64,000 nucleotides of DNA from Thraustochytrium aureum (GCA_012862495.1 BLSG01000298.1:1-64000), one strand, 5' to 3'. Shown: positions 7,820 through 64,000, counted from the stretch's first letter. The notes: generated by a model from the letters alone, not told the origin. Numbers and translations are program-made.

Positions 7820-10316
7820 TCAGTCGGCGAGCTCCTCGATCGTGACGCCAGACCCCGCGCCGGCGGAGGCAATGGACTGCACGCTCGCGATTCCTGTAGC
7901 TTCGCCAAGAACATCTGCGAAGGAGCGGGCCGCCTCTTGCCCGGACGCGCCATCGAACGAGCCGGACTGCCCTTCGTCGCTACCGCCACCAAACAGCGAC
8001 GCATGGTACGTGGCCTCGTCCTCGCCTTCACCGACCGCGCTACTCTGGCTATCTCCAGCGTCGTCCGTCTCCCACGGTTTACGAGGCGGCGCCAGCGTCG
8101 GTTTCGACGGGTTGTTGGCGTCAACGCTCAAAGAGTTGGGGATTTTCTTGATACCCGGCGGCTCCTTGCCCTCGCTGACCATCTTGAAAACCTCCGCGTA
8201 CGAGAGAGGGTACTCGGGCTTGCTGCCGTCTTTTACCGCGTCCCCGATCGGCGCCCCCTCAGCCGCTTCCTCCTTCACGCCAGGCGCAATCGGCGCGACG
8301 CCAGCCGGTGCTGCCCCGGCTTGTGGCTGCGGGGCAGGGGCTTGGGCAGCGGCTTGGGCAGGGGCTTGGGCAGGAACTGGAGCTGACGCGGTTGGTGCTG
8401 CGGGGGCCCCGGCACTGCTCAGAGAAAACGGGGGTGCAACAAAGGCCTCCTTCTTCTTTGGTGGCGCGGCAGGCGAGTCTGCACTCTGCGGCGCGCTCAC
8501 GGACGAGGCAGTCGCTGCATCGTCCTGACCTGGCAGAGGCTGCGCCTTGGAGACAGTTTCGAGATTGGCAATAGTATCGCGGAGGACCTCGAGACCCCAC
8601 TTGTCCTTGTTGTCGCGCCACTCGGCGCTCCACTCGAGTGTGGGGCTTCGCGAGCCCATCCCAAGACCCTGGCCGCGCTCTTCAAACCCGTTCGCGCGCA
8701 GTAGGTCCAAATGGAACTCTACGTCGCCCAAGCACTTGATGTAGCTCTGGTTGGAGCGCGCAATGCGCCCGTATCGCGGGGCGTCGGGCTCTTTGGCCAG
8801 ATTTCGCAAGTACATGAGAATGAGGTTCACGGCTGCCCTGATCTTGTCCTTGGGGCAGGCCTCGACCATTTTGGCAAGCGCGGTGCGTGAAGCGTGCATC
8901 TTCTGCTGTGCAACTTCTTCATCCGACGGCACGTCCTCCGCCTCGGCAGCGGCGGCGGTGGCCGCAGCCGCGCTCTCTGCGGCAGCAACAGCAACCTCCT
9001 CGGCTGCGGCGCTGTCGATCGGGCTCGAGGCCGCCTTGATCAGGTCGTCGAGCGGATTCGACTTGGCCACTTGCTTGACCGCCGCGGCACCGCCCACCTT
9101 TGAGTCCCCGTTGCCGTCCGAGGCAGACGCTGCCACGTCGATTGCCTTGAGCTTGGCTGCCACCTCGTCAGGGGATCCGCCAGCCAGCAAAAGCGTCTTG
9201 ATTGAGCCCAGCTCGGCCTTCAGGTCGCTCGTAGCCTGCGTGAGGCTGGCAACCCAGGCTGCCTGACTTGGCTCACTGCTGGAGTTTCGTTTCCGCCTTT
9301 CTTGAGCTCCCCGATCTGAAGAGCGAGGCACTGCAGGGACGACCCGACCTCCTTGAGCAGCTCCGTTTGTTGCTTGACCACCTCAGCGAGGGCCTCGGTG
9401 CCCGCGCTGCTCATGCCAAGCATGTTGCCGTCGTTGAATCCAACAAGACCACCGCTGGCGTAAGGCGCGCTGCCAAACATTGCGTTGGCGTCCATGGGAA
9501 TAATGGCTTGGCCGAAGCGCTCTGCCTCGAACGCGGCTGCGCTCGGCACTGGCTTGCCNNNNNNNNNNNNNNNNNNNNNNNNNNNNNNNNNNNNNNNNNN
9601 NNNNNNNNNNNNNNNNNNNNNNNNNNNNNNNNNNNNNNNNNNNNNNNNNNNNNNNNNNNNNNNNNNNNNNNNNNNNNNNNNNNNNNNNNNNNNNNNNNNN
9701 NNNNNNNNNNNNNNNNNNNNNNNNNNNNNNNNNNNNNNNNNNNNNNNNNNNNNNNNNNNNNNNNNNNNNNNNNNNNNNNNNNNNNNNNNNNNNNNNNNNN
9801 NNNNNNNNNNNNNNNNNNNNNNNNNNNNNNNNNNNNNNNNNNNNNNNNNNNNNNGGGGGAACCTGCGCTCCTGGAGGTGCAAACGGCCCCAACCACTGCG
9901 GCGGGGCGCCTTGTTTAAGCACCATGGTCTTGTACAGGAACGCCATGCCGGCGCCTGCAGACAAGGCCAGAGTGCCAGGGACGAGAATGCGGTTTACCCA
10001 TGACTGCTGCTGCTGCGACGGCGCCGGTGGCGGAGGCTGCTGCTGAGCGGGAATCGGTGGGCCACCAAAGTTGACAGGTCCACGCCCCCGATCACCGCTT
10101 GCTGCTGCTGGTTGCGGGGCTGCCCTCGGCCTGCCCTGCGTCGCCTTGCCCGACTTTGCCCGACGTTTTCGCATCGGCCCGCTTGACGGCCTCGTTGATC
10201 TCCTCTTCAGTCAGGCCTTTGTTTCGCAGAAACCCGACGCGCTCCTCGAGAGGGGCTTGCTGCACCTTCGGGTGCGTCAGGAACGTGACGCCATTCGCGA
10301 CCTGGTCCTCGCGCAT
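7820..10316 (-). CDS. PEX14: peroxisomal membrane protein PEX14 with internal PUB domain and C-terminal KPWE domain (2 frameshifts, 1 gap)
   Basis: Pex14_N MREDQVANGVTFLTHPKVQQAPLEERVGFLRNKGLTEEEINEA; hydrophobic segment WVNRILVPGTLALSAGAGMAFLY; coiled coil; PUB-like LILMYLRNLAKEPDAPRYGRIARSN...LLRANGF; PLSYAEVFKMVSEGKEPPGIKKIP...PRKPWE. Frameshifts lie near 10130 and 9285. Confidence 0.88.
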
Positions 10317-10481
10317 CCTGCTCGCCTCCACCGACGCGCCCGCAGCGTCCTCGTTCCGCGCACTTTCGACGGCGTCGGCCGGTCTCGCTCACCGCGCAAG
10401 ACTTCGTTTCGCTCCGCGTTGGCTGCCCGGCCAGCCTGACGGCCTGACGGCCTGGCCAGCCTGAAACTATACCAAACAACC

Positions 10482-10482
10482 G

Positions 10483-10518
<36 letters not shown>
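10482..10518. repeat. (CCTG)n microsatellite, about 9 units
   Basis: Read directly from the sequence; lies upstream of PEX14. Confidence 0.95.
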
Positions 10519-10521
<3 letters not shown>

Positions 10522-11037
10522 GCCAGCCTGCCACTGCTCGGTCCGCGCGGCTTCAGGTGTCTGTCGCGCTCGACTCCAGTCCGCTCCGCTGAGATGGTTT
10601 TGGATTTCCCAAGTCGTCCCTGCACCTGCTCTCCGTCCCTTCTCCTCAGTCCCGCGTCACTTTGTTTACCATAGTGACGAAGATCTGACGTGGTTGTTTT
10701 TCCCAAGGCGTCAGTTTAGGGCCTTTGTGACTGGTGCGCGCCAGAGAGCAAGGGCGCCGTCACGCTAGGGGCACGGTGTCGTGAATATTCGGCGCGATGT
10801 GACGGGCGCGGGTCTGGAGTGACGGGGACGTGGTTGTGTCGCGGAGGTGACGCGAGAGGGGGGTGGAGAGACGAGACGACGGTTTGCGCCAGGTGGAACG
10901 TGGGCAGAGCTGCGTGGCGGCCTGCAGCGGAGTGGGGATACCGACGAACGGGACGCGCGGCAGGCTGTCACCGTACGGCCGAGAAGGACCGCGACGCCCT
11001 CAGAGCCGAACGCGAGAGCACACCAGCAGTTACCGCG

Positions 11038-40321: not shown

Positions 40322-41230
40322 TTTGTGGTCCTCAGCTGGTGAACTGCGGGCGATCCTCCCGCTGTCGCTGCCGGGATTGGTTGCAAAGGTGATACGGCGA
40401 ACGTAGCGTCCTTGCCGAGGACACCGAAGACCACATCGTGCGAGCCCAGCATCGCATGCATCGTTTCCTCGGCCTCGGCGGCCAGCTCATCCGGCGCCCA
40501 AACGCCAAACCTCGAGTTGATATTGCCGTCGAGGTCGAGCTTCCTGCGTGTCGCCTTCGTCAACAAGTTGGGGCACGAAGGTGTGCCGAGTCGCAAGAGC
40601 TGGCCCGGCGAAGAGCAACCTCCGCGACGCGCTCCGGCCGCGATCCGGACGGGGCATTTACAGAGTGCCCCGGTCCGAAGCAGACCGCCGCGGCCACGGC
40701 CGAGTCCGGTCGCTACCTCTAGCTAGAGGAAATACCCTAAACGACAAGCGTGGAGAAGCTCAGTTGGCCCGCCACGCACGCGCCGAATCTGGCAAAAGGG
40801 CGAGCGACCGCGGCCGTGCAATTGCCATGAGTCACTTCCAACGCCGTTTTGCAGCCCGCGCCCTTGGGCTGACGGCGTCGTTGCTGCTGCTCGGACGCGT
40901 CGCCCAAACATCACACAGGGATGCGGCCTCGCAGATGTGGCGCGCACTCGTGATTTCCCCGCGACTCCACCATGGGCGCACGATGGCATGTTCCCGAAGT
41001 CAGTCCCCGTCACGGTATTTCCCCGTCTGCCAGTGTCTCTCCTCCTTCTCCTGGGCGCGCTTGGGCTGCAGTGCGCCAAGGGACGGACTCGTCCTTGCTG
41101 GTGGTGTTGTTCATGATTTCAATTGACCAGAGCCCAAATCGATCAGCCGAGCGAGCGGCGGATTGGCGCTGACGAGACCGCAGGCATTGGAAGCGTTTGG
41201 CCGAGCGAGCGAGCGAGCGAGCGGGCCAGG

Positions 41231-42206
41231 ATGGTGCTTAAGAGCCGCGTTTGCGATATGCTGGGCATCCAGTACCCCGTTGTGTGCGGTGGGATGCACT
41301 ATGTTGGGTATGCCGAACTCGCGGCTGCAGTGAGCGAGGCTGGCGGACTGGGCATGATCACCGCGCTGACGCAGACCTCGCCTGAAGAGCTGCGCTCGGA
41401 GATTCGCAAATGCAGGAGCCTGACGAAGAAGCCCTTTGGGGTGAACGTGACCCTGCTGCCTGCTCTGCAGCCGCCCGACTACGGCGCGTACGCCCAGGTG
41501 ATCATCGACGAAGGCGTCAAGGTGGTGGAGACGGCCGGCCGCAGCCCAGACAAGTTTANCAAGCTGTTCAAGCAGCACGGCATCATTTGCATCCACAAGT
41601 GCGTCCAAGTCAAGCACGCCCTGACCGCGGAGAAGCTCGGCGCCGACATCGTGAGCATCGACGGGTTCGAGTGCGCCGGCCACCCCGGCGAGGCGCAGAT
41701 CGGCAACTTTGTACTTGGCCCCATTGCCAAAGAGAAGCTCAAGATCCCCTTTATCATCTCGGGCGGCGTTGGCAACGGTGTCCAGCTCGCTGCCGCCATG
41801 GCCATGGGTGCGGGAGGGCGTCAACATGGGGACGCGCTTCATGGCGACCAAGGAAGCCAACATCCACGACAATATCAAGAAGGCTCTCGTTGATGGTGAC
41901 GAGCTCTCGACGACGCTGATTTTCACCACACTCAACAACACTGAGCGCGTTTACAAGAACGAGACGTCGGTCAAGGTTGCGGCCATCGAGAAGGAAAACC
42001 CTGGCGACTTTTCCAAGATCGCGCCGTACGTCAAGGGCGACCTGTACCGCAAGAGCTTCCAGGAGACGGGCGACACGCAGTCGAGCTGCTGGAGCGCGGG
42101 CACCGTCATGGGCCTCATCCACGACGTGCCCAGTTGCAAGGAGCTCATCGAGCGCATGGTTGGCGAGGCTGAGGCCACCATTCGCGGGCTCAACGCGCGC
42201 CTTTAG
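41231..42206 (+). CDS. nitronate monooxygenase / FabK-like FMN-dependent TIM-barrel oxidoreductase, PTS1 (-ARL); frameshift near 41813
   Basis: LGIQYPVVCGGM, ELAAAVSEAGGLG, KPFGVN, DGFECAGHPG, SGGVGNG, GAEGVNMGTRF and WSAGTVMGLI are family motifs. Confidence 0.92.
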
Positions 42207-53235: not shown

Positions 53236-53924
53236 CGCTCCTCCAAGCTACGCGCGCGTCCAAAACGCAGTACAGGTTGCTGGTGTCTGCCTCGTCACCG
53301 CAGAAGAAGATCTGCAGGCTGTGCCTTGCTGTGTCTCTTCGATTTCGTTTTGCCACCCCATCGACAGGCGAGCACGCCAGCTCGAAGGAGCAACCACTTG
53401 CCCATCAAGTAAGTTACGTAGTGAGTTGGTGCTGTCAAGGAGCATCCTCCTTGCCACCGAAGGTGAGTACCGTAGTAGGTACGTAGGCTATGCAGTCAGC
53501 ACAGCCGCTGCGGCCCTCGCCGGCTGCTTGATCGGCTGCCGCAGAGCCCCTGATTTCGGCCAATTCCCAGTACCTCCTGATTCTGCTGCGCTGACTCGGA
53601 CACACATGAACAGTCAGTCGCATAGCGCTTGAAGCGCTCGGCCGATCGGACCTGAGGCGTGCATCGTGCATGCGCCGGCAACGCGCGTGCCAGCCAGCCG
53701 CGAAGATCCGCCCTCCTCACCGAGAGCTCCACGAGCCTGAGGAGTCGAGCAGGGAGGACGCTCGGTTAGGTCGCTCTCGCGGCGGTTAGGTTGGCCATCT
53801 GCGTCTGCGACATCTTGCGAGTGAACTCGACATCGTGGCGACGCAGATCCTGCTTCTCTGACACCTGCGAGAAGCTGGGACGGAGTAGGACTGGCGGAAA
53901 CGGCAGCACAGGATGCAAGGCGCG

Positions 53925-54579
53925 ATGAAGACGCTGGCGGTGCTCGCCGCTGTGGTGGCGCTTGGCGCGCGCGAATGCGTCGGGTCAATCGCGGTGAGCC
54001 GGTCGATCTCGCACCTTGACATGGCGGACCTCAAAGTGGATATCAACGGGTGCTCCAAGAACGACAAGTACGGGTGCAGCGAGTTCTCCACGGACTGGGG
54101 CAAGAACATCTCGGGCAAGGTGCACGCTGTGCTGAAGAGCGACCTGGAGAAGGGCTCGCACTTTATCGCCAGCTTGCACGTCAAGGTAAGTCGACCCTTC
54201 TGCTGGCTCGCACAACCCCCGCACTTGAGGCGCGCTCGTCGCTGACGCCGCCCCTTGCACACAGACAGGAATCCTCCCGGTCAAGGTCGACATCAAGTGC
54301 GATCTGTGCGGCAAGCCGTGCGAGTTTCACATCCCGGTCCTTGACAAGCCGATGTCGATCCAGCTGCCACCGTGCCCGCTCAAGGCCTCTGGGGCGGACA
54401 AGTCGTTCAACGTCATGATCCCTTCCGACGACCCCGTACCGCTAAAGCTCGCGGTGGACGCAATCATCAACGTGTACGATCACAAGGGCGACGAGGTGGC
54501 AGCAGTGCATGCGAGCGCACGCGTCTCCAAGTCCGGCCTGCTCTTCGCCAGCGCGGCCTCGCTCGAGCCCGCTCGCTGA
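53925..54579 (+). CDS. secreted Cys-rich beta-sandwich protein, possibly ML (NPC2/MD-2) lipid-binding domain; intron 54186-54264
   Basis: Signal peptide MKTLAVLAAVVALG and an in-phase GTAAGT...CTGAC...CAG intron. The Cys pattern CDLC...C...PPCPL and alternating beta strands resemble ML domains. Confidence 0.6.
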
Positions 54580-54728
54580 TTGCCGTCTCTACTGCGCCGC
54601 GCCACTCCTCTGCGAGCGGCTGGCGGGCCGCGAGGCCAGCTGGCGTTGCCGTGCGAAAACAAGCCAAAACGAAAAGGGAAAGGAAACACGATCATTATTT
54701 TTTCCCGCGCCAATCCGCCACAGAAAAG

Positions 54729-55541: not shown

Positions 55542-56424
55542 TTTCTCCCCTCGCGGTCGGTCGGCCTGGTCGGTCGCCTGCACTGGCGTCAGCCACTCCA
55601 GCGCCAAAAACCACGCCAAAAAAATCGCCCAAACCAAACTGAGCCGCGCGCGGGGGCTCGACAAGCAGCCAGCCAGTCCCCTTCAGCGCCTGCCTGCCCG
55701 CCTGCTTGCCGTGTGCCTGCTTGCTTGCCTGCTTGCTCGGCTGCGAGTGCGTGCTCGTTGCGCGCCTGCGTGCCGCCGTATTGGCGCGCGTAAAGCCGCT
55801 CGCAGCTGCTGCGAAGCAACCAGTCCTTTACCGTTGAGCCGGATGACGGTTGTGCGAACAGAGCGTGCTCGCCGCGGCCGCGAACAGGCCAGTGCGCGTG
55901 AACAACGGCTTGCTCGCACCAGAACACCGTGCGCCCGGCTGCCCTGCGACCGGCCCAGTCCGTGGCGATGATAGGACATGCCGATGCCGGCAGGTGGAGC
56001 ATCCCTCCCTGCCTCCCTGCCTCAGGGAGCCTGCTTCGCCCTCCGCGCGATGGACGCGCCGCGCAGGCGGTCGGGACAGCCGGAGAGAGCTGAAGAGCTC
56101 GCTCTTGTCGCCCTCGCACTCCGCAGTGTCCGCACCCGCACGCCGTTGCGATGAAACGAACGCAGGCCTCGCGGCCATGGGCGGACGGATGAGCTGTTTT
56201 GTTCGAGCTGGCCTTCTTCCAAGGCGTCGCTGATGTGACTCATGTGAGTGCAGGCAATTGTCCGCTCCGGCGTGATGGGCCTGGAAACTGTGCTCTGCGG
56301 CATCGGCAGACCGCATTGGAAGGAAGCGAACGCCACGCAAGCCTCGGCAGCGCTGCAGCGGGACGCGGAAAGTCGCGCGACGAGTTGGGCGAGCGGACAG
56401 AGGAGGAAGGCGACGCCTGTGGAC

Positions 56425-59400
56425 ATGGACAAACTGCTTGCGTCTGCGCTGCAGCTCGCGCTCGGCGCGAGGGACGTCGCGTCGCGCGCGCAAGGCATCA
56501 GCGCGAATACGGTGAATGCCACGATGTCGACCGCTGTTGTCAAGCAGGGCGTAGTGCCGCCCGCGGTCCGCAAGGCAGTTGAGGCGGTGAGCCGCGCCTT
56601 TGGCGCTGGCGTGGCCGCTCTGTTCGCCTGGTACCTGGCCTTCATGCTGCGCTACAAGATGCAGCAGGCGCGCAGCACGCTCCCGCTTGCCCCAGGCCCG
56701 ACGCCGCTCCCAGTGCTGGGCGACCTCAACCTCGTGCTTGCCGAGAAGTCGGACGGGAACGGCANNNNNNNNNNNNNNNNNNNNNNNNNNNNNNNNNNNN
56801 NNNNNNNNNNNNNNNNNNNNNNNNNNNNNNNNNNNNNNNNNNNNNNNNNNNNNNNNNNNNNNNNNNNNNNNNNNNNNNNNNNNNNNNNNNNNNNNNNNNN
56901 NNNNNNNNNNNNNNNNNNNNNNNNNNNNNNNNNNNNNNNNNNNNNNNNNNNNNNNNNNNNNNNNNNNNNNNNNNNNNNNNNNNNNNNNNNNNNNNNNNNN
57001 NNNNNNNNNNNNNNNNNNNNNNNNNNNNNNNNNNNNNNNNNNNNNNNNNNNNNNNNNNNNNNNNNNNNNNNNNNNNNNNNNNNNNNNNNNNNNNNNNNNN
57101 NNNNNNNNNNNNNNNNNNNNNNNNNNNNNNNNNNNNNNNNNNNNNNNNNNNNNNNNNNNNNNNNNNNNNNNNNNNNNNNNNNNNNNNNNNNNNNNNNNNN
57201 NNNNNNNNNNNNNNNNNNNNNNNNNNNNNNNNNNNNNNNNNNNNNNNNNNNNNNNNNNNNNNNNNNNNNNNNNNNNNNNNNNNNNNNNNNNNNNNNNNNN
57301 NNNNNNNNNNNNNNNNNNNNNNNNNNNNNNNNNNNNNNNNNNNNNNNNNNNNNNNNNNNNNNNNNNNNNNNNNNNNNNNNNNNNNNNNNNNNNNNNNNNN
57401 NNNNNNNNNNNNNNNNNNNNNNNNNNNNNNNNNNNNNNNNNNNNNNNNNNNNNNNNNNNNNNNNNNNNNNNNNNNNNNNNNNNNNNNNNNNNNNNNNNNN
57501 NNNNNNNNNNNNNNNNNNNNNNNNNGGGGCGAGAAGATCGACAATCTGACCGCTCAGCTCAAGCGCGAGTCGATGAACATGGCCATGCGTGTTCTCTTCG
57601 GGAAGCGGTTCGGCGCGAACGAGACGCAAGACTTCAAGGACCTCAAGCATTGCGTCGAGTGGTTCTTTTGCAACCTGAGCTCGGGCAACCCCTCGGACAT
57701 GCTGCCCTGGCTCAGGGCTTTGCCCAACCCCTTCCTGCGCAAGGCTCAGGAGACGGCGGACTTGCGCGACCGGGTCCTTGGCAATCTCATCGCAGAGCAC
57801 CGCGCAGAGTGGGACGACTTGCGAAACCGCGGGCTGATGACCTCGCGCACCGAGGGGCGCGGCATGCTCGACCAGTTCTTTTTCGACCAGGTGGAAGGCT
57901 TCGAAGCCAAAGACGAAGCGACAGGGACCATGAAGCGCATGTTCCTCACCGAGGACGAGACGCACGTTTGCGTGTGGGATATCATCTTCGCGATGACCGA
58001 CACGACAGCGACCACGAACGAATGGCTCATTTACCACATGATCAACCACCCCGAGGTCCAGGCCAAGGTTCACGAGGAGCTGGACCGTGTTGTGGGCCGC
58101 GACCGCTTGCCCACGCTGGACGACAGGGAAAACCTGCCCTACCTCTGGGCCGTGCTCAAGGAGGTGATGCGCTTTCGCATTGTGTCGCCGATCATGGCTC
58201 CCCACTACGCCGTCTCGGACGTTACGCTCCACGACACAACGGGCAAGGAGTTCCTCGTGCCTCAGGGCACAACAATCTACATGCACGGCTACAGCATGGG
58301 GCTCGACCCCGAGCTTTGGGACAACCCCCTCGAGTTCAACCCTGACCGCTGGTTCACCAAGCGCAACCAGGGCCTCGACCTGTACGGCCAAGTCAAGCGC
58401 CAGAACGTCGAGCACTACAAGTTCATCCCGTTCTCGCTGGGGCCGCGCATGTGCCCGGGCTACTCGTTCGCCAAGGTGGCCCAGTTCATCCAGTCGGCCG
58501 TCATCATGGGTTCCTTCAGCTGGCGCCTCACCAAGGACGCTCGCAAGATCGCCCCGCAGTTCACCGTTGACGGCCAGCTCGACATGACCGAGGACTGGGG
58601 CCTCACCATCATGCCCCGTCGATACGGCGAGATGGGCCTCATCGACGCTGTGAGTCGCCCTTGGGCCTCCCTTTGCCGCGCACAAGACGGCGATGTGGAC
58701 TTTTCGAACCGGTTCCTCCGCCGGGATGTGCGGCAACAGGTGCACCTCGTCTCCAAGGAGCCGCTCTCAGCCGACACCGCTCTTCTTCGCTTTGCTCTCC
58801 CAGACAGGACGCAGGTGCTGGGGCTTCCGGTTGGCAAGCACTTTAAGATTTACATGCCCAACCTCGCCGGGATCGAGTCGGGCCAGTGGAACGGCCGAGA
58901 CGACCCAGAGGCGCACAAGAACGAGATTGAGCGAGCGTACACGCCCACCTCCGCAGACGAAGATGTCGGTTTTGTCGACCTCGTTGTGAAGTTCTACCGC
59001 CCTGCGGAGAAGATCCGATTCCCGGACGGCGGCAAGGTCAGCCAGCAGCTCGACCGGCTGATCCTCGGCGACTCCATCGAGATCGCGGGACCCTTTGGCC
59101 TCATCGAGTACCAGGGCAGTTCGACCTTCAAAGTGGGGTCGAGCCGAACGATCACCAAGAAGATGGTCGGGATGATGGCTGGCGGGTCGGGCATAACCCC
59201 GATGCTGCAGATCCTCAACGCTGCGCTCAGCGACCCGGCGGACGAGACGCTTTTTTCTCTTCTCTACGCCAACCAGACCGAGGAGGACATCCTTGTGCGC
59301 GACCGCTTGGAGGCGCTCTTGGCAGCGCATCCCGAGCGATTCCGCCTGCACTACACGGTCGACCGCGCCACGGAGGGCTGGGCCTACTCCACGGGCTTTA

Positions 59401-59549
59401 TCGACGCGGACATGATCCGCGCCTACATGCCGCCGGTCTCTGACGAGACGGCCATCCTCCTCTGCGGCCCGCCGCCGATGGTCGAGTTCGCGTGCAAGGC
59501 CAACCTCGCCAAGCTCGGCTACGCCAAGGACTCCATCCTCACCTTCTAA
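56425..59549 (+). CDS. cytochrome P450 - NADH:cytochrome b5 reductase (FNR-like) fusion protein; gap 56765-57525
   Basis: P450 part: TM anchor plus PGPTPLPVLG hinge, I-helix FAMTDTT, EVMR (ExxR), FNPDRW and FSLGPRMCPG (heme Cys). It continues in frame into the reductase part: LGLPVGKH, RAYTPTS, GGKVS, AGGSGITPM, LYANQTEEDIL, YTVDR and CGPPPM. The start codon is uncertain. Confidence 0.93.
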
Positions 59550-59634
59550 ATCGAACCCATCTCCTTCCCAGCAGCCCCAGCGCCATTCGCCCGGCGCCGC
59601 ACTGCGTCGTTCAACGCGGGTCTGGCATGCAACT

Positions 59635-60167: not shown

Positions 60168-63100
60168 ATGGGCAACGCCAATGTCTCGAGCGGCGGGTGC
60201 AAGTGCCTCTGGGGGTATGACAGAGATGAGCTGAGACAGGCCGCCGAGGCGTTTGTCGCGAGGGCGCAGGGTAGCGCCAAGGAGGCTGCCGGAGCGTCGT
60301 TTGGTGTGCCACGGGCGCACGTCAAGAGCATTGCTGTGCGCGGCTCGAGGATCGATGGGCCAAATGCCGCGAAAACCACTTCCAGCAAACACTCGGCTCG
60401 CTCTGGTAGCACCAAGGCCAAGGACATCGAAAGTAAAGCCGAAGCCGATGCATTTGGCGAGCACGAAGGCAAAGGGGAGAGCAGCGAGGAGGAAAGCGAA
60501 GAACATGCGCATGGGTGCGGCTGGTTTGCCTGCCCGTTCAACGTTGCGGACTCCACAGCCGTTGACGGGTTCCAACTCCTCAGCACCCTGTGCCTCTTTT
60601 CCTGCTTGAGCGACCACGACAAGCTCGCTTTCCTCTTCCGGCTCTTCGACTTTGAGAAGCGCGGAAGCCTCACTTACGACGAGCTGTTTCTTGTGCTTGA
60701 CAGCTGCGCTGCGGGGGCAGAACGATTTGGTGGCTTTGACTCGCCAAACACGACCGAGCTGGAAAGCGTTCTGGAATGCCTTTTAGAAGCGGCGCCCAAA
60801 GGCTCGAGAGACGCAGGCCGTCTCAGTCGGTTTGCGTTCGTCAATAACACGTCGGTTAGGCTCCACCGTTGGCTGCTGGTCTTTGTAGCAGCCTTGGAGC
60901 GTTTCAGTGCCTCGCGCCCGGGCTTGCGGGACGAAGGCCGCCTGCTCCACACCGTGCCTCTCGCGCCAGCGGGTTGCTCTGGCGCCCTCCCCGACGACCT
61001 CGTCCTCGTTGGAAAGCCCCACGAGGCGCCTTCTCAAGCAAGGAACCTCGGCGTCGCAACGACGGCAAACGGGGCCCGCGCGGCGGTCTATCTCCGGTCG
61101 GGCGCTCTTGCTCAAATCGTCGCCGGCATGATCTGCTTTTACAGCAAGGGGGGCGAGGATGGCGCTGCTCCAAGGCACTATTGGCATCACACAGAGCCCA
61201 TTGAAAAGACCGAGTACTGTTGGGACGCCGACGTCCTCCTCACGGCGTCCTCGACCCGCCTGGCCGTGTGGATCGAGGCCGACGGCGGCCTGCGGCTTGT
61301 CACCTCGCTAGCGATAGCGCAACCCGGCTGTGCGGCGCTCGCGTGGGCCGCGCCGGACCGACTTGCCGTCGTTTACAACTGGGGCGCCTTGGTCGTTCTC
61401 CGCGTCGATGTGGAATCTGGCACCGCCACAGAGCTGCTGGCCATGCCGGTACCGCGAAGCTGCGTCCGCGGCGTGGCCTTTCTTGCCACACCAGACGACG
61501 TCGTCGTTTGCGGAACAGGTGGATACGTTGAGTTTTTCTCCGTCGTCAACTTGTCGCGCAGGGTGGGGCACGCCAGCACAGCGCTCGTATGCCCGGACGC
61601 ATACGCAGCGCTCTCGTTCGAGTCGGCAGCCTTCCAGCCCAACGGCGGCGCTCTCGTTCTTGGCGGCAGCGACGGGCGCCTGTACATCTGGACGGGCACC
61701 CAGCTAACCCGACGGGAGGAGGCGCATCGCGGCCAAGCTATCATCGCCCTGCAGAGTTGCTCTCGCGGGTTTTGCTCAGCTGGGTCCAAAGACGGGGTCA
61801 TCCGCCTCTGGAGCATTAATGCAAGCCTCGTTGCCTCATTTGAGACAATGGGGGATGTCAACACGCTCGAGCCCGGCGTGAAGATGGTGTGCTGGTCCAA
61901 GGACGGGACCCGCATCGCAGTCACGACAGCAGCAAACGAACTCTTCCTGCTCAACGGGATCAACGGCGCCAACGTGTCCTCCAAGACTGACGACACAACC
62001 GCGTTCTCCGTGGGCCACGCTGGGATGACGGCCAGCTTTGCAGATGCCAAGCGCGACGTCCTCTTGACGACTGGCGCGGACTGCACGCTCAAGCTCTGGG
62101 ACCTGAGCTCGGGGACAATTGTGTCAACGTGCATGCTTGAGAGCCCTGGTTGCTGTCTTGCAACTGCCCCGCTCGTCGACCCCACTTCCTCCGCCCGTCA
62201 CTGGATACCCCAGTCTCGCCCAGACACCGTACTGTGCTGCGCAGTGGGCTTGCAAGCGAGCTGCGTCGTCATCGAGCGCGACGCGGAGGCCGCTGTCTGG
62301 ACACAAATATTTTCCACCCCATGCTCGACGCCACCCAAGTGCGTGGCGCTCTCGCCGTGCGCACGTTTCCTCGCCGTTGATGACCGCATCTTTGACCTCA
62401 AGTCTGGCACGCTCCACGGGACCTGCCCCGCGCTCTCTGAAGCGCGGGACAATTTTTTCTTCACCACTGCTCCACGACGGGGACACTGGAGGCTCCACGT
62501 CGAGGACGAGGTCTTCGACCTCGTCATGAAGGGCTGGTTTCGCGACAAGGGCATCAAGCCTGTGAAACCCTCGACGCTGTCCCGCGAGCGCGCCAGAGCC
62601 GCAAAAGCAAGCGCCAAGGCGAAGCCGGCTGTAGTTGCCGCCGATCAGGCAGGGATGCCTATCAAAGAGGAACGGGGGGACGGCGAACCCGTCGAGGAGG
62701 AGCAGGTTCGCATCGACTCGGTCAATGCAAGCGCAAGCGCTCGATTCCTCGCCCCGGGCGAAGGCGGCGCTGTCGAGCGCACCATATTGTTCTCGCCAAG
62801 CGACGGTGCCGTGATCCACTTTGCAAACCACTGCCAGCTTTCCAGCGCCGCGCTAGGCCAGGAGTCTCCTCGCAACCGAGGGCACTTGCGCTTCACAGCG
62901 TGGGAGGACTCGGCTTTGGCCAGCGTGCAAGGAGCAAAAGCCCCAGTTGGTGACGGCATTGCTTCTGATGCAGAGTCTGGTTTGATCGCCTACGCTGCTG
63001 GCACGAGCATCGTTGTATCAAGCCCGGGAGACCGCGGCCCTGCGGAGTCTGGGGCGCCTCGAGCGGCAAAGTACCTCACGCTGCCCACCGACTTGACTTC

Positions 63101-64000
63101 AATCTCGAGCGCGCGGAGTGCCGACAAACCTGTTTGGCGCCTTGCGGCTGCTTGCCGGGGCAATGTTGTTTGCTGGGACGTTGGCCTTCCTGAGACTGGC
63201 GCTCCTGTAGCGCCTGCCTGCCACCTGGTGTCTCGCACCGAGATCCCCCGCGCGTTCGTGGAGCAAGTTGTCCTCACTAGAAATGGGCGCGCCATGGCTC
63301 TGATCGGGAGCGACGCAAACCTGCATATCGCGTTCTGCGAGACGGGGCAAGTCTTTGCGTCTGCGCCGCTATTGCTCAGCCCTGCGATGCTGTCGAGGAC
63401 GCAAACGACCGCCCAGACCGCGCGCCGGCGCAACGTCAGCTTTCCGATGCTGACGCGGTCGGGGCTCCCTCGGCGACGCTGTCTGCATTGTTGAGGTTCT
63501 CACAGGCCTCTCAAAGTGGGTCATTCACCGTTTGTCGGGGCGTTCGGTGTCGGCGTGGATCGGCGACCACTCGTGCCCGCTAACTTGCGTCGACGGAGAC
63601 TGGGTGGGAGATGAGCGCGGCTCCTTGTGGCAGGTCACTTGTTCAAGAAGCGGCCGGGGCGCTCTGCGTCTGGTTGCTCGTGAAGCACACGACAGCGGGC
63701 CTGTTGTCGCGCTCCGCGGGCGGACGACCGCGAGCCGAGACGGAGTGCTCCGCATTTGGAGCGAAGACGGAATCGTGTTGAGCACGGTGCCATGCCAGAA
63801 AGGCCTCGGACGCTTACTGGCGACAGGCGATGAGGAAGAAGAGCGGTCGAATGTCCATGCAGTCAGTGCCATTGCAGCGATTCTAGACGGGCACAAGGTG
63901 GTCGACGTGCGGACGAGTCCTCCCACCGTGGTCACGAGCAGCCACAGCAAGATCAAAGGCGTGGCTTTTGCAGAAGACGCACCCGAGTCGCGGGCACGGG
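60168..64000 (+). CDS. large EF-hand + WD40-repeat protein (EML/CFAP-like), frameshifted near 63400-63540, truncated by window end
   Basis: N-terminal MGNANVS; calcineurin-B-like DKLAFLFRLFDFEKRGSLTYDEL; WD repeats GGSDGRLYIW, GSKDGVIRLW and TTGADCTLKLWD. A downstream frame has TASRDGVLRIWS and stays open to 64000. Confidence 0.75.

Follow-up and report, generated by a model that had tools for sequence, protein, structure and literature searches.

Reading frame and continuity of the gene

The locus raises the question of whether a cytochrome P450 and an NADH-cytochrome b5 reductase are truly encoded as one protein and, if they are, by which route electrons would pass from NADH to the haem. 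The window (the whole 64,000-nucleotide stretch of DNA that was analysed) is eukaryotic, rich in GC and poor in introns, and contains 17 runs of N. Frame +3 is free of stop codons from 57528, at the edge of one such run, to a TAA at 59547–59549, and encodes 673 amino acids. The earlier note placed a stop-free frame at 57573–59549; its end and its openness stand but its start does not, 57573 being the first ATG in a frame that is already open from 57528. On the other side of the N run (Table 1), the N-terminal piece holds the start ATG, a hydrophobic anchor, a basic stretch, a Pro hinge and the start of the P450 fold, in a frame that differs from that of the P450 core within the window.

Table 1. 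Features of the fusion gene, in coordinates of the window
Feature	Position	Strand	Basis or remark
First 113 codons of the fusion gene	56425..56764	+	alignment to full-length relatives at their N-termini
Predicted single membrane anchor, residues 58-76	56596..56652	+	hydrophobicity
Pro-rich hinge (PGP motif), microsomal P450 type	56683..56712	+	sequence, alignment
Assembly gap, 761 N	56765..57525	.	splits N-terminal piece from remainder
P450 core with the C-terminal extension typical of the family, up to GD	57528..58694	+	residues 1-389 of P0001
I-helix FAMTDTT	57987..58007	+	acid-alcohol pair retained, usual Gly replaced by Met
ExxR motif	58161-58172	+	translation
Haem-binding motif, axial Cys 58452-58454	58431..58460	+	kept in 21/21 fused members
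Six-residue junction, P450 GD to reductase FL	58695..58712	+	alignment; bridged by X1, X5
Complete cytochrome b5 reductase module and stop	58713..59549	+	Pfam, PDB matches
His before FAD strand	58839	+	conserved in 21/21 fused members
RAYTP (RxYTP)	58932-58946	+	translation
YTVDR NADH-type Asp	59361	+	aligned with Asp of vertebrate b5R P0050

Five of the ten sequencing runs listed were compared with the locus, three of which (X1–X3, from a single study) were guessed to be RNA, while X4 and X5 are DNA runs. All of X1–X3 splice the GT..AG intron of a neighbouring gene, whereas the DNA run X4 retains it, and for this reason X1–X3 behave as transcripts. One X1 contig of 2879 nt covers both sides of the gap: its letters 1–434 correspond to 56331–56764 and its letters 831–2879 to 57526–59574, the latter interval showing six differing letters and no gaps. 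The gap itself is spanned by 396 nt, and the ATG at 56425 is in frame with the core (738 nt, or 246 codons). The anchor-bearing N-terminus is thus part of the fusion protein, in agreement with the earlier placement of the P450 and the anchor on the same chain, and the complete protein, taken from the X1 contig plus the 673-residue frame, has 919 amino acids. A 2778-nt contig of X3 that begins at 56432 has the length predicted from X1, as compared over its 5' part. With 396 nt in the contig against 761 N in the window, either the gap is over-sized or an intron of ~365 nt lies inside it; a metagenomic relative (L001) carries no intron at this position. The X1 contig and a DNA piece from X5 (58654–58801, no differences) also cross the junction between the two halves with neither a stop nor an indel. 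Runs X1–X3 lack cover over ~55780–56274, where X4 has it, and X2 lacks cover over 58556–58713; neither absence was counted as evidence. The fusion is real and constitutes one gene, with transcription-like continuity.

The P450 and reductase halves

The P450 half is recognised by the Pfam p450 model at residues 8–339 of the 673-residue translation (E 1.5e-71), and its closest solved relatives are of the CYP17A and CYP1 types (E 3e-40). It has a P450 fold in which the ExxR, PERF-type and FxxGxRxCxG motifs are found, and the core motifs named earlier (ExxR, PxRW and FxxGxRxCxG) can all be read in the translation. The I helix carries the Asp-Thr pair in 21/21 fused rows, preceded by Met, Ser, Leu or Phe in place of the usual Gly. 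As judged from this pair, the protein should activate O2 in the ordinary manner of P450s. The microsomal anchor and Pro hinge of the earlier reading are likewise present, as a predicted hydrophobic segment followed by PGP. The hydrophobicity of this segment is modest (Kyte-Doolittle mean 1.54 over 19 residues), and an anchor at the same position scores 1.48–2.44 in the 15 full-length fused relatives that were scored.

The reductase half is matched by FAD_binding_6 (residues 405–528, E 9e-23) and NAD_binding_1 (residues 549–657, E 5e-29), and among solved structures it is closest to mammalian NADH-cytochrome b5 reductases (E 1e-74). A Pfam scan of the 673 residues gave no match to flavodoxin, Fer2 or Cyt-b5. 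GGK, GGSGITPM, CGPPPM and the terminal Phe are all present, and the complete set of module motifs listed in the earlier note (RxYTPxS, GGKVS, GGSGITPM, CGPPPM) was recovered from the translation. All 21 fused members share RxY, the His that precedes the FAD strand, GGK, GxGxxP and the acidic residue of NADH type. The last of these, which is the YTVDR Asp, is Asp in 20 members and Glu in one. This fits its earlier assignment as an NADH-type residue; we take the position to be one that favours NADH over NADPH, and use of NADH is predicted. The His-Tyr-Thr set is similarly well conserved (His 21/21, Tyr 21/21, Thr 20/21). The middle residue of RxY is Lys in 30/32 free relatives and Ala or Ser in 21/21 fused members; this switch was considered as a sign of b5 loss and discarded, as vertebrate b5 reductase carries Pro there.

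The junction and a structural model

The GD at the end of the P450 extension closes at residue 389, and the conserved reductase start, FL, occupies residues 396–397. The linker of ~25 residues proposed earlier is not upheld: the stretch up to GD is kept in unfused sister P450s, which end directly after it, and six residues remain. The spacer between the Asp of GD and FL is exactly six residues long in 20/21 fused members.

An AlphaFold2 model was made for P0003, the closest full-length relative, from a 32-row alignment. It has a pLDDT of 84.8 and a pTM of 0.82, with a pLDDT of ~90 at residues 600–640, which include the junction. In a rough calculation with assumed weights, freely moving domains would give a pTM of ~0.63, and the inter-domain error comes to ~5–6 Å. 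On this rough calculation the pTM and junction pLDDT of the model would imply a defined arrangement of the domains. In Foldseek searches the two halves of the model match b5 reductases and CYP17/CYP1 separately, and the reductase half reaches a TM-score of 0.92 (on the target) with rat and human b5 reductases.

The fused family and its origin

A search with the 673-residue sequence gave 294 matches from 7998 candidates scored. Among the 120 matches listed, 19 carry all three Pfam domains at 54–73% identity, and seven are the same P450 alone. The named members among the matches listed are Mucochytrium quahogii, a thraustochytrid whose record is a complete transcript containing the fusion, and a record under the label Batrachochytrium salamandrivorans. 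Of the named free reductases listed, the nearest is from Hondaea. These names suggest a labyrinthulomycete-like host. Among the best 150 matches in a 50%-identity library, only one cluster is a P450-b5 reductase fusion. Both halves were matched by 28 of the 279 proteins collected, all 28 of which belong to this family, and a Pfam scan of 32 selected matches, mostly long ones, yielded no further P450-reductase fusion. Ten loci were recovered in a metagenome scan: three reductase-fused, one b5-fused, five unfused and one weak. One of them, L001, is an intronless fusion gene of 879 amino acids with the same downstream neighbour as in the window. A census of records with both the haem motif and the C-terminal motif, near-duplicates counted, comprises 18 unfused, two b5-fused and 29 reductase-fused forms; of the last group, 28 were recognised by pattern, and P0021, which escaped it, was added.

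The tree of P450 domains was built from 34 rows with near-duplicates omitted (21 fused, eight unfused, one b5-fused and four distant outgroups). The 21 fused domains form one clade with support of 96/94, the root being unsure owing to long outgroup branches. In a quick reductase tree of 58 rows, the same 21 members and one fragment, which starts at the junction, form a clade with an SH-aLRT of 97. The two trees agree in their basal split and in a subclade of 12 members, a congruence that fits a single old fusion followed by vertical inheritance. An origin of the fusion as an artefact, in which misassembly or an overlooked stop had merged two adjacent genes, might be suspected from the 17 N gaps of the window and from the X2 contigs, which are interrupted near the junction (between 58555 and 58714). 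It is nevertheless highly improbable, since X1 and X5 traverse the junction intact, and it is refuted by the family, with its 19 independent clusters, intronless genomic relative and congruent trees.

Two fused members are unusual. P0017 (BASA81_000402), the record labelled B. salamandrivorans, falls among protist-type members, where it pairs with a Logan record at a support of 100/99. It is missing 23 residues of the junction, and may reflect contamination, transfer or an error in the gene model. P0021 has a degenerate reductase, with a long branch and altered GxGxxP and NQT, and an intact P450.

The free and otherwise fused relatives of the reductase are also varied. The closest free reductases are P0028 and P0031 from Hondaea, which bear the name NADH-cytochrome b5 reductase 2. 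At their N-terminus lies a b5-like haem/steroid-binding domain, and its motif is presumably of the PGRMC1/Dap1 type rather than that of a bis-His b5. Proteins of the PGRMC1/Dap1 type are known P450 partners. In P0041, P0042, P0140 and P0166, which represent four separate clusters, the same b5 reductase module is joined to an MFS transporter. P0043, P0047, P0172 and P0243 are triple fusions of cytochrome b561, b5 and b5 reductase, and are close reductase relatives.

Unfused and b5-fused sister P450s

The P450 of P0133 is 55% identical to that of the window and carries, at the same point, a C-terminal bis-His cytochrome b5 (Pfam Cyt-b5, E 1.5e-24), which follows ~30 loose, low-complexity residues after GD. 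This form occurs in two records (P0133 / P0277; L003:291–2252), and since 706 of 731 residues are identical between them (96.6%), P0133 is not a one-off chimera. The sister gene has its stop, with 290 nt of sequence beyond it. Wider searches found no further b5-fused clusters, so that the form consists of one cluster and two records; a P450-cytochrome b5 fusion such as that of P0133 is itself an unusual P450 architecture. Because sisters are either unfused or fused to b5 at the same point, the family is tied to the NADH-b5 reductase-b5 chain.

Intron read-through was considered as the source of the unfused sisters and rejected, as all five unfused loci stop 30–35 codons after the same motif. 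No match to a reductase or b5 was found in the 22–1322 nt available behind these five stops. A second P450 family of Mucochytrium type (P0268 / P0279 / P0287), ~30% identical, has a similar C-terminal extension and no reductase.

All classes, whether fused, unfused or b5-fused, retain the basic WxxxR motif of the C-helix. A motif in the B-C loop is present in 23/23 long fused, 8/10 unfused and 2/2 b5-fused records. Its conservation suggests that all forms may share one common substrate, and the conserved substrate-recognition loops suggest that this would be endogenous and probably lipid-like. Assignment of a substrate by similarity was attempted and fails: CYP17A and CYP1 are only ~20–24% identical in a fold alignment, and named matches from outside the family 24–35%.

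Comparison with known P450 systems

The earlier note placed the protein outside the fusion classes known to it, and this agrees with two published accounts. The eukaryotic P450 classes described in the available part of PMC11610987 are I, II A–C, VIII, IX and X, and the self-sufficient fusions in that of PMC12462446 (2025) are BM3, P450foxy and RhF; the P450-b5 reductase layout is absent from these portions of both. A search of the open literature, by title and the opening of the abstract, found no description of a P450-b5 reductase fusion. The family thus has a conserved P450 fusion architecture that is apparently undescribed, and it adds to the P450 redox classes, as these are given in the accessible sections of PMC11610987 and PMC12462446, an architecture that they lack.

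The nearest functional parallel is the microsomal class II C (PMC11610987, available part), with the same reductase family, a microsomal-type P450 and a likely identical electron path. That system consists of three separate proteins, whereas here reductase and P450 form one chain. CBBR and CYP540A2 of Aspergillus nidulans, as described in the text available from PMC12462446, likewise constitute a dedicated NADH/b5-reductase supply in which two of three parts are fused. In CBBR, however, it is b5 that is joined to the reductase, and the P450 is a separate soluble protein, while the protein of the window joins the P450 to the reductase, lacks b5 and has a predicted anchor. BM3 (CYP102A1) and CYP505, of class VIII, also have an N-terminal P450 and a C-terminal flavoprotein reductase, but theirs comprises an FMN flavodoxin and an NADPH-type diflavin reductase, both of which are absent here and for which there is no room. 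CYP116B (the P450 RhF type, class VII) similarly pairs a P450 with a reductase of the FNR fold; it is bacterial and soluble, with an FMN reductase and a C-terminal 2Fe-2S domain, whereas the chain of the window ends at the reductase Phe. Superposition of the P0003 model by Foldseek gave an rmsd of 24 Å with full-length BM3 and 23 Å with full-length CYP116B46. The nearest architectures in the ESM Atlas are CYP116B and class VIII, all under 0.85, and no cluster with a P450-b5 reductase architecture is listed there among clusters of 50 or more. Flavohaemoglobin (PMC9687028, in the part available) resembles the fusion in that its N-terminal haem domain is reduced, with no carrier in between, by a fused FNR-like FAD module; its haem is that of a globin, His-ligated, near −120 mV and with an exposed edge, while a P450 haem is thiolate-ligated and buried.

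The route of electrons to the haem

The chances seem evenly balanced that electrons pass from NADH through FAD and a free cytochrome b5 to the haem. The fusion protein, predicted to reside in the ER membrane, would likely accept hydride from NADH, its probable preferred donor, onto the reductase FAD, and single electrons would then likely reach the P450 haem via a separate cytochrome b5. The fixed junction would hold the flavin and haem domains together, with b5 shuttling on one scaffold, and the fusion would represent two-thirds of the known NADH - b5 reductase - b5 - P450 chain. This route is preferred mainly because the family has separately captured b5 reductase and b5. Reductases with FAD only (FMN-less CPR, adrenodoxin and putidaredoxin reductases) are not known to drive a P450 without a small carrier. 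A chain of NADH, CBR, b5 and P450 is an established class (PMC11610987, available part), and for the fungal CYP540A2 the accessible text of PMC12462446 describes more reduction with b5 present than by the reductase domain alone. The His-Tyr-Thr path, which in mammalian b5 reductase runs from FAD to the b5 site (according to the available part of PMC9687028), is conserved in the fused members; it also serves FAD binding, however, and so is no proof of b5 use. The 29 window ORFs that were scanned include no b5 gene. Position 402, which we take to be a b5-contact Lys, is basic in 29/29 free relatives against 7/19 fused members, and its loss in most of the latter speaks against the b5 route, although the window's protein keeps a basic residue. 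The b5-fused sister leans towards b5 in trans, while the invariant junction length and the confident two-domain model lean the opposite way and would suit direct transfer at least equally well.

A tentative alternative, to which we give somewhat less than an even chance, is that the protein is self-sufficient, with the reductase in a rigid docking position at the proximal P450 face and its flavin, the one FAD, reducing the haem directly. FADH− and then the anionic semiquinone would give one electron each, with no involvement of FMN, Fe-S or b5. Consistent with this are the fixed six-residue junction, as against the ~30-residue low-complexity linker of the b5-fused sister, the confident domain arrangement predicted for P0003, and the matches themselves, among which no triple P450-b5-reductase fusion occurs, though its length lies within the length ranges of both searches. 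Moreover, b5 reductase natively delivers two one-electron steps and flavohaemoglobin offers a precedent for an FNR-like module that reduces a fused haem (both from the part of PMC9687028 available), and some transfer to CYP540A2 by the reductase alone is mentioned in the available text of PMC12462446. The C-helix and C-D loop, the usual partner-docking surface of P450s, differ between the main fused clade and the unfused sisters (P0003 positions 195–216), but the two basal fused members hold most of the unfused-type C-helix letters, and the difference may be drift within the clade. On the reductase surface of the fused members, basic columns are eroded no more (3/18) than acidic ones (5/22), and net charge is similar; surface charge thus does not distinguish direct transfer from the b5 route. 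The b5 fusion of the sister also counts against direct transfer, as it indicates that the family uses b5. Should the flavin nevertheless reduce the haem directly, which we regard as possible without favouring it, the protein would be the first self-sufficient P450 to work with one FAD alone, free of any one-electron carrier, and would represent a new P450 redox class from labyrinthulomycete-like protists. It is unlikely, by comparison, that the reductase is a passenger on a P450 driven by NADPH-P450 reductase. The fusion would in that case serve to anchor or co-express b5 reductase, which would supply b5-dependent enzymes of the same pathway, or it would give the second electron only. Such an arrangement would accommodate the fusion of the closest free reductases to b5-like haem/steroid-binding domains, MFS transporters and cytochrome b561, partners whose variety indicates a readily fused module, the pairing of a degenerate reductase with an intact P450 in P0021, the 18 unfused sister records and the retention of the basic WxxxR motif in all classes. 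The catalytic residues of the reductase and the length of the junction are held across the whole clade, however, and the partner in the second, independent fusion of the family is b5, which is no random choice.

The three versions of one P450 family (unfused, b5-fused and b5-reductase-fused) amount to a natural experiment. They bear on an old question: whether a P450 can receive both its electrons by the NADH/b5 route, and whether the flavin of b5 reductase is able to reduce the haem of a P450 with nothing in between. Were direct transfer to hold, no natural P450 reductase would be smaller than the 280-residue NADH module, which would offer biocatalyst design a compact part driven by NADH.

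Neighbouring genes

No pathway cluster around the P450 was found among the window neighbours scanned with Pfam (4092–54732). These are ordinary eukaryotic genes and include a bZIP factor, a signal peptide peptidase, a NUDIX protein, two ABC transporters and a VRR-NUC nuclease, together with a separase, an L-type lectin, a LIM protein, a leishmanolysin-like protease and a radial spoke protein. A nitronate monooxygenase (41117–42203) lies in two frames flanking a single N at 41559, probably an assembly break. Downstream of the fusion is an EF-hand-like/WD40 gene (60168–63494), whose counterpart in L001 is found at 8462–10708 with three ORFs intervening. Upstream of the radial-spoke gene, a small gene with no Pfam match (53877–54584) contains a 79-nt GT..AG intron (54184–54262) that is spliced in X1–X3 and present in X4.
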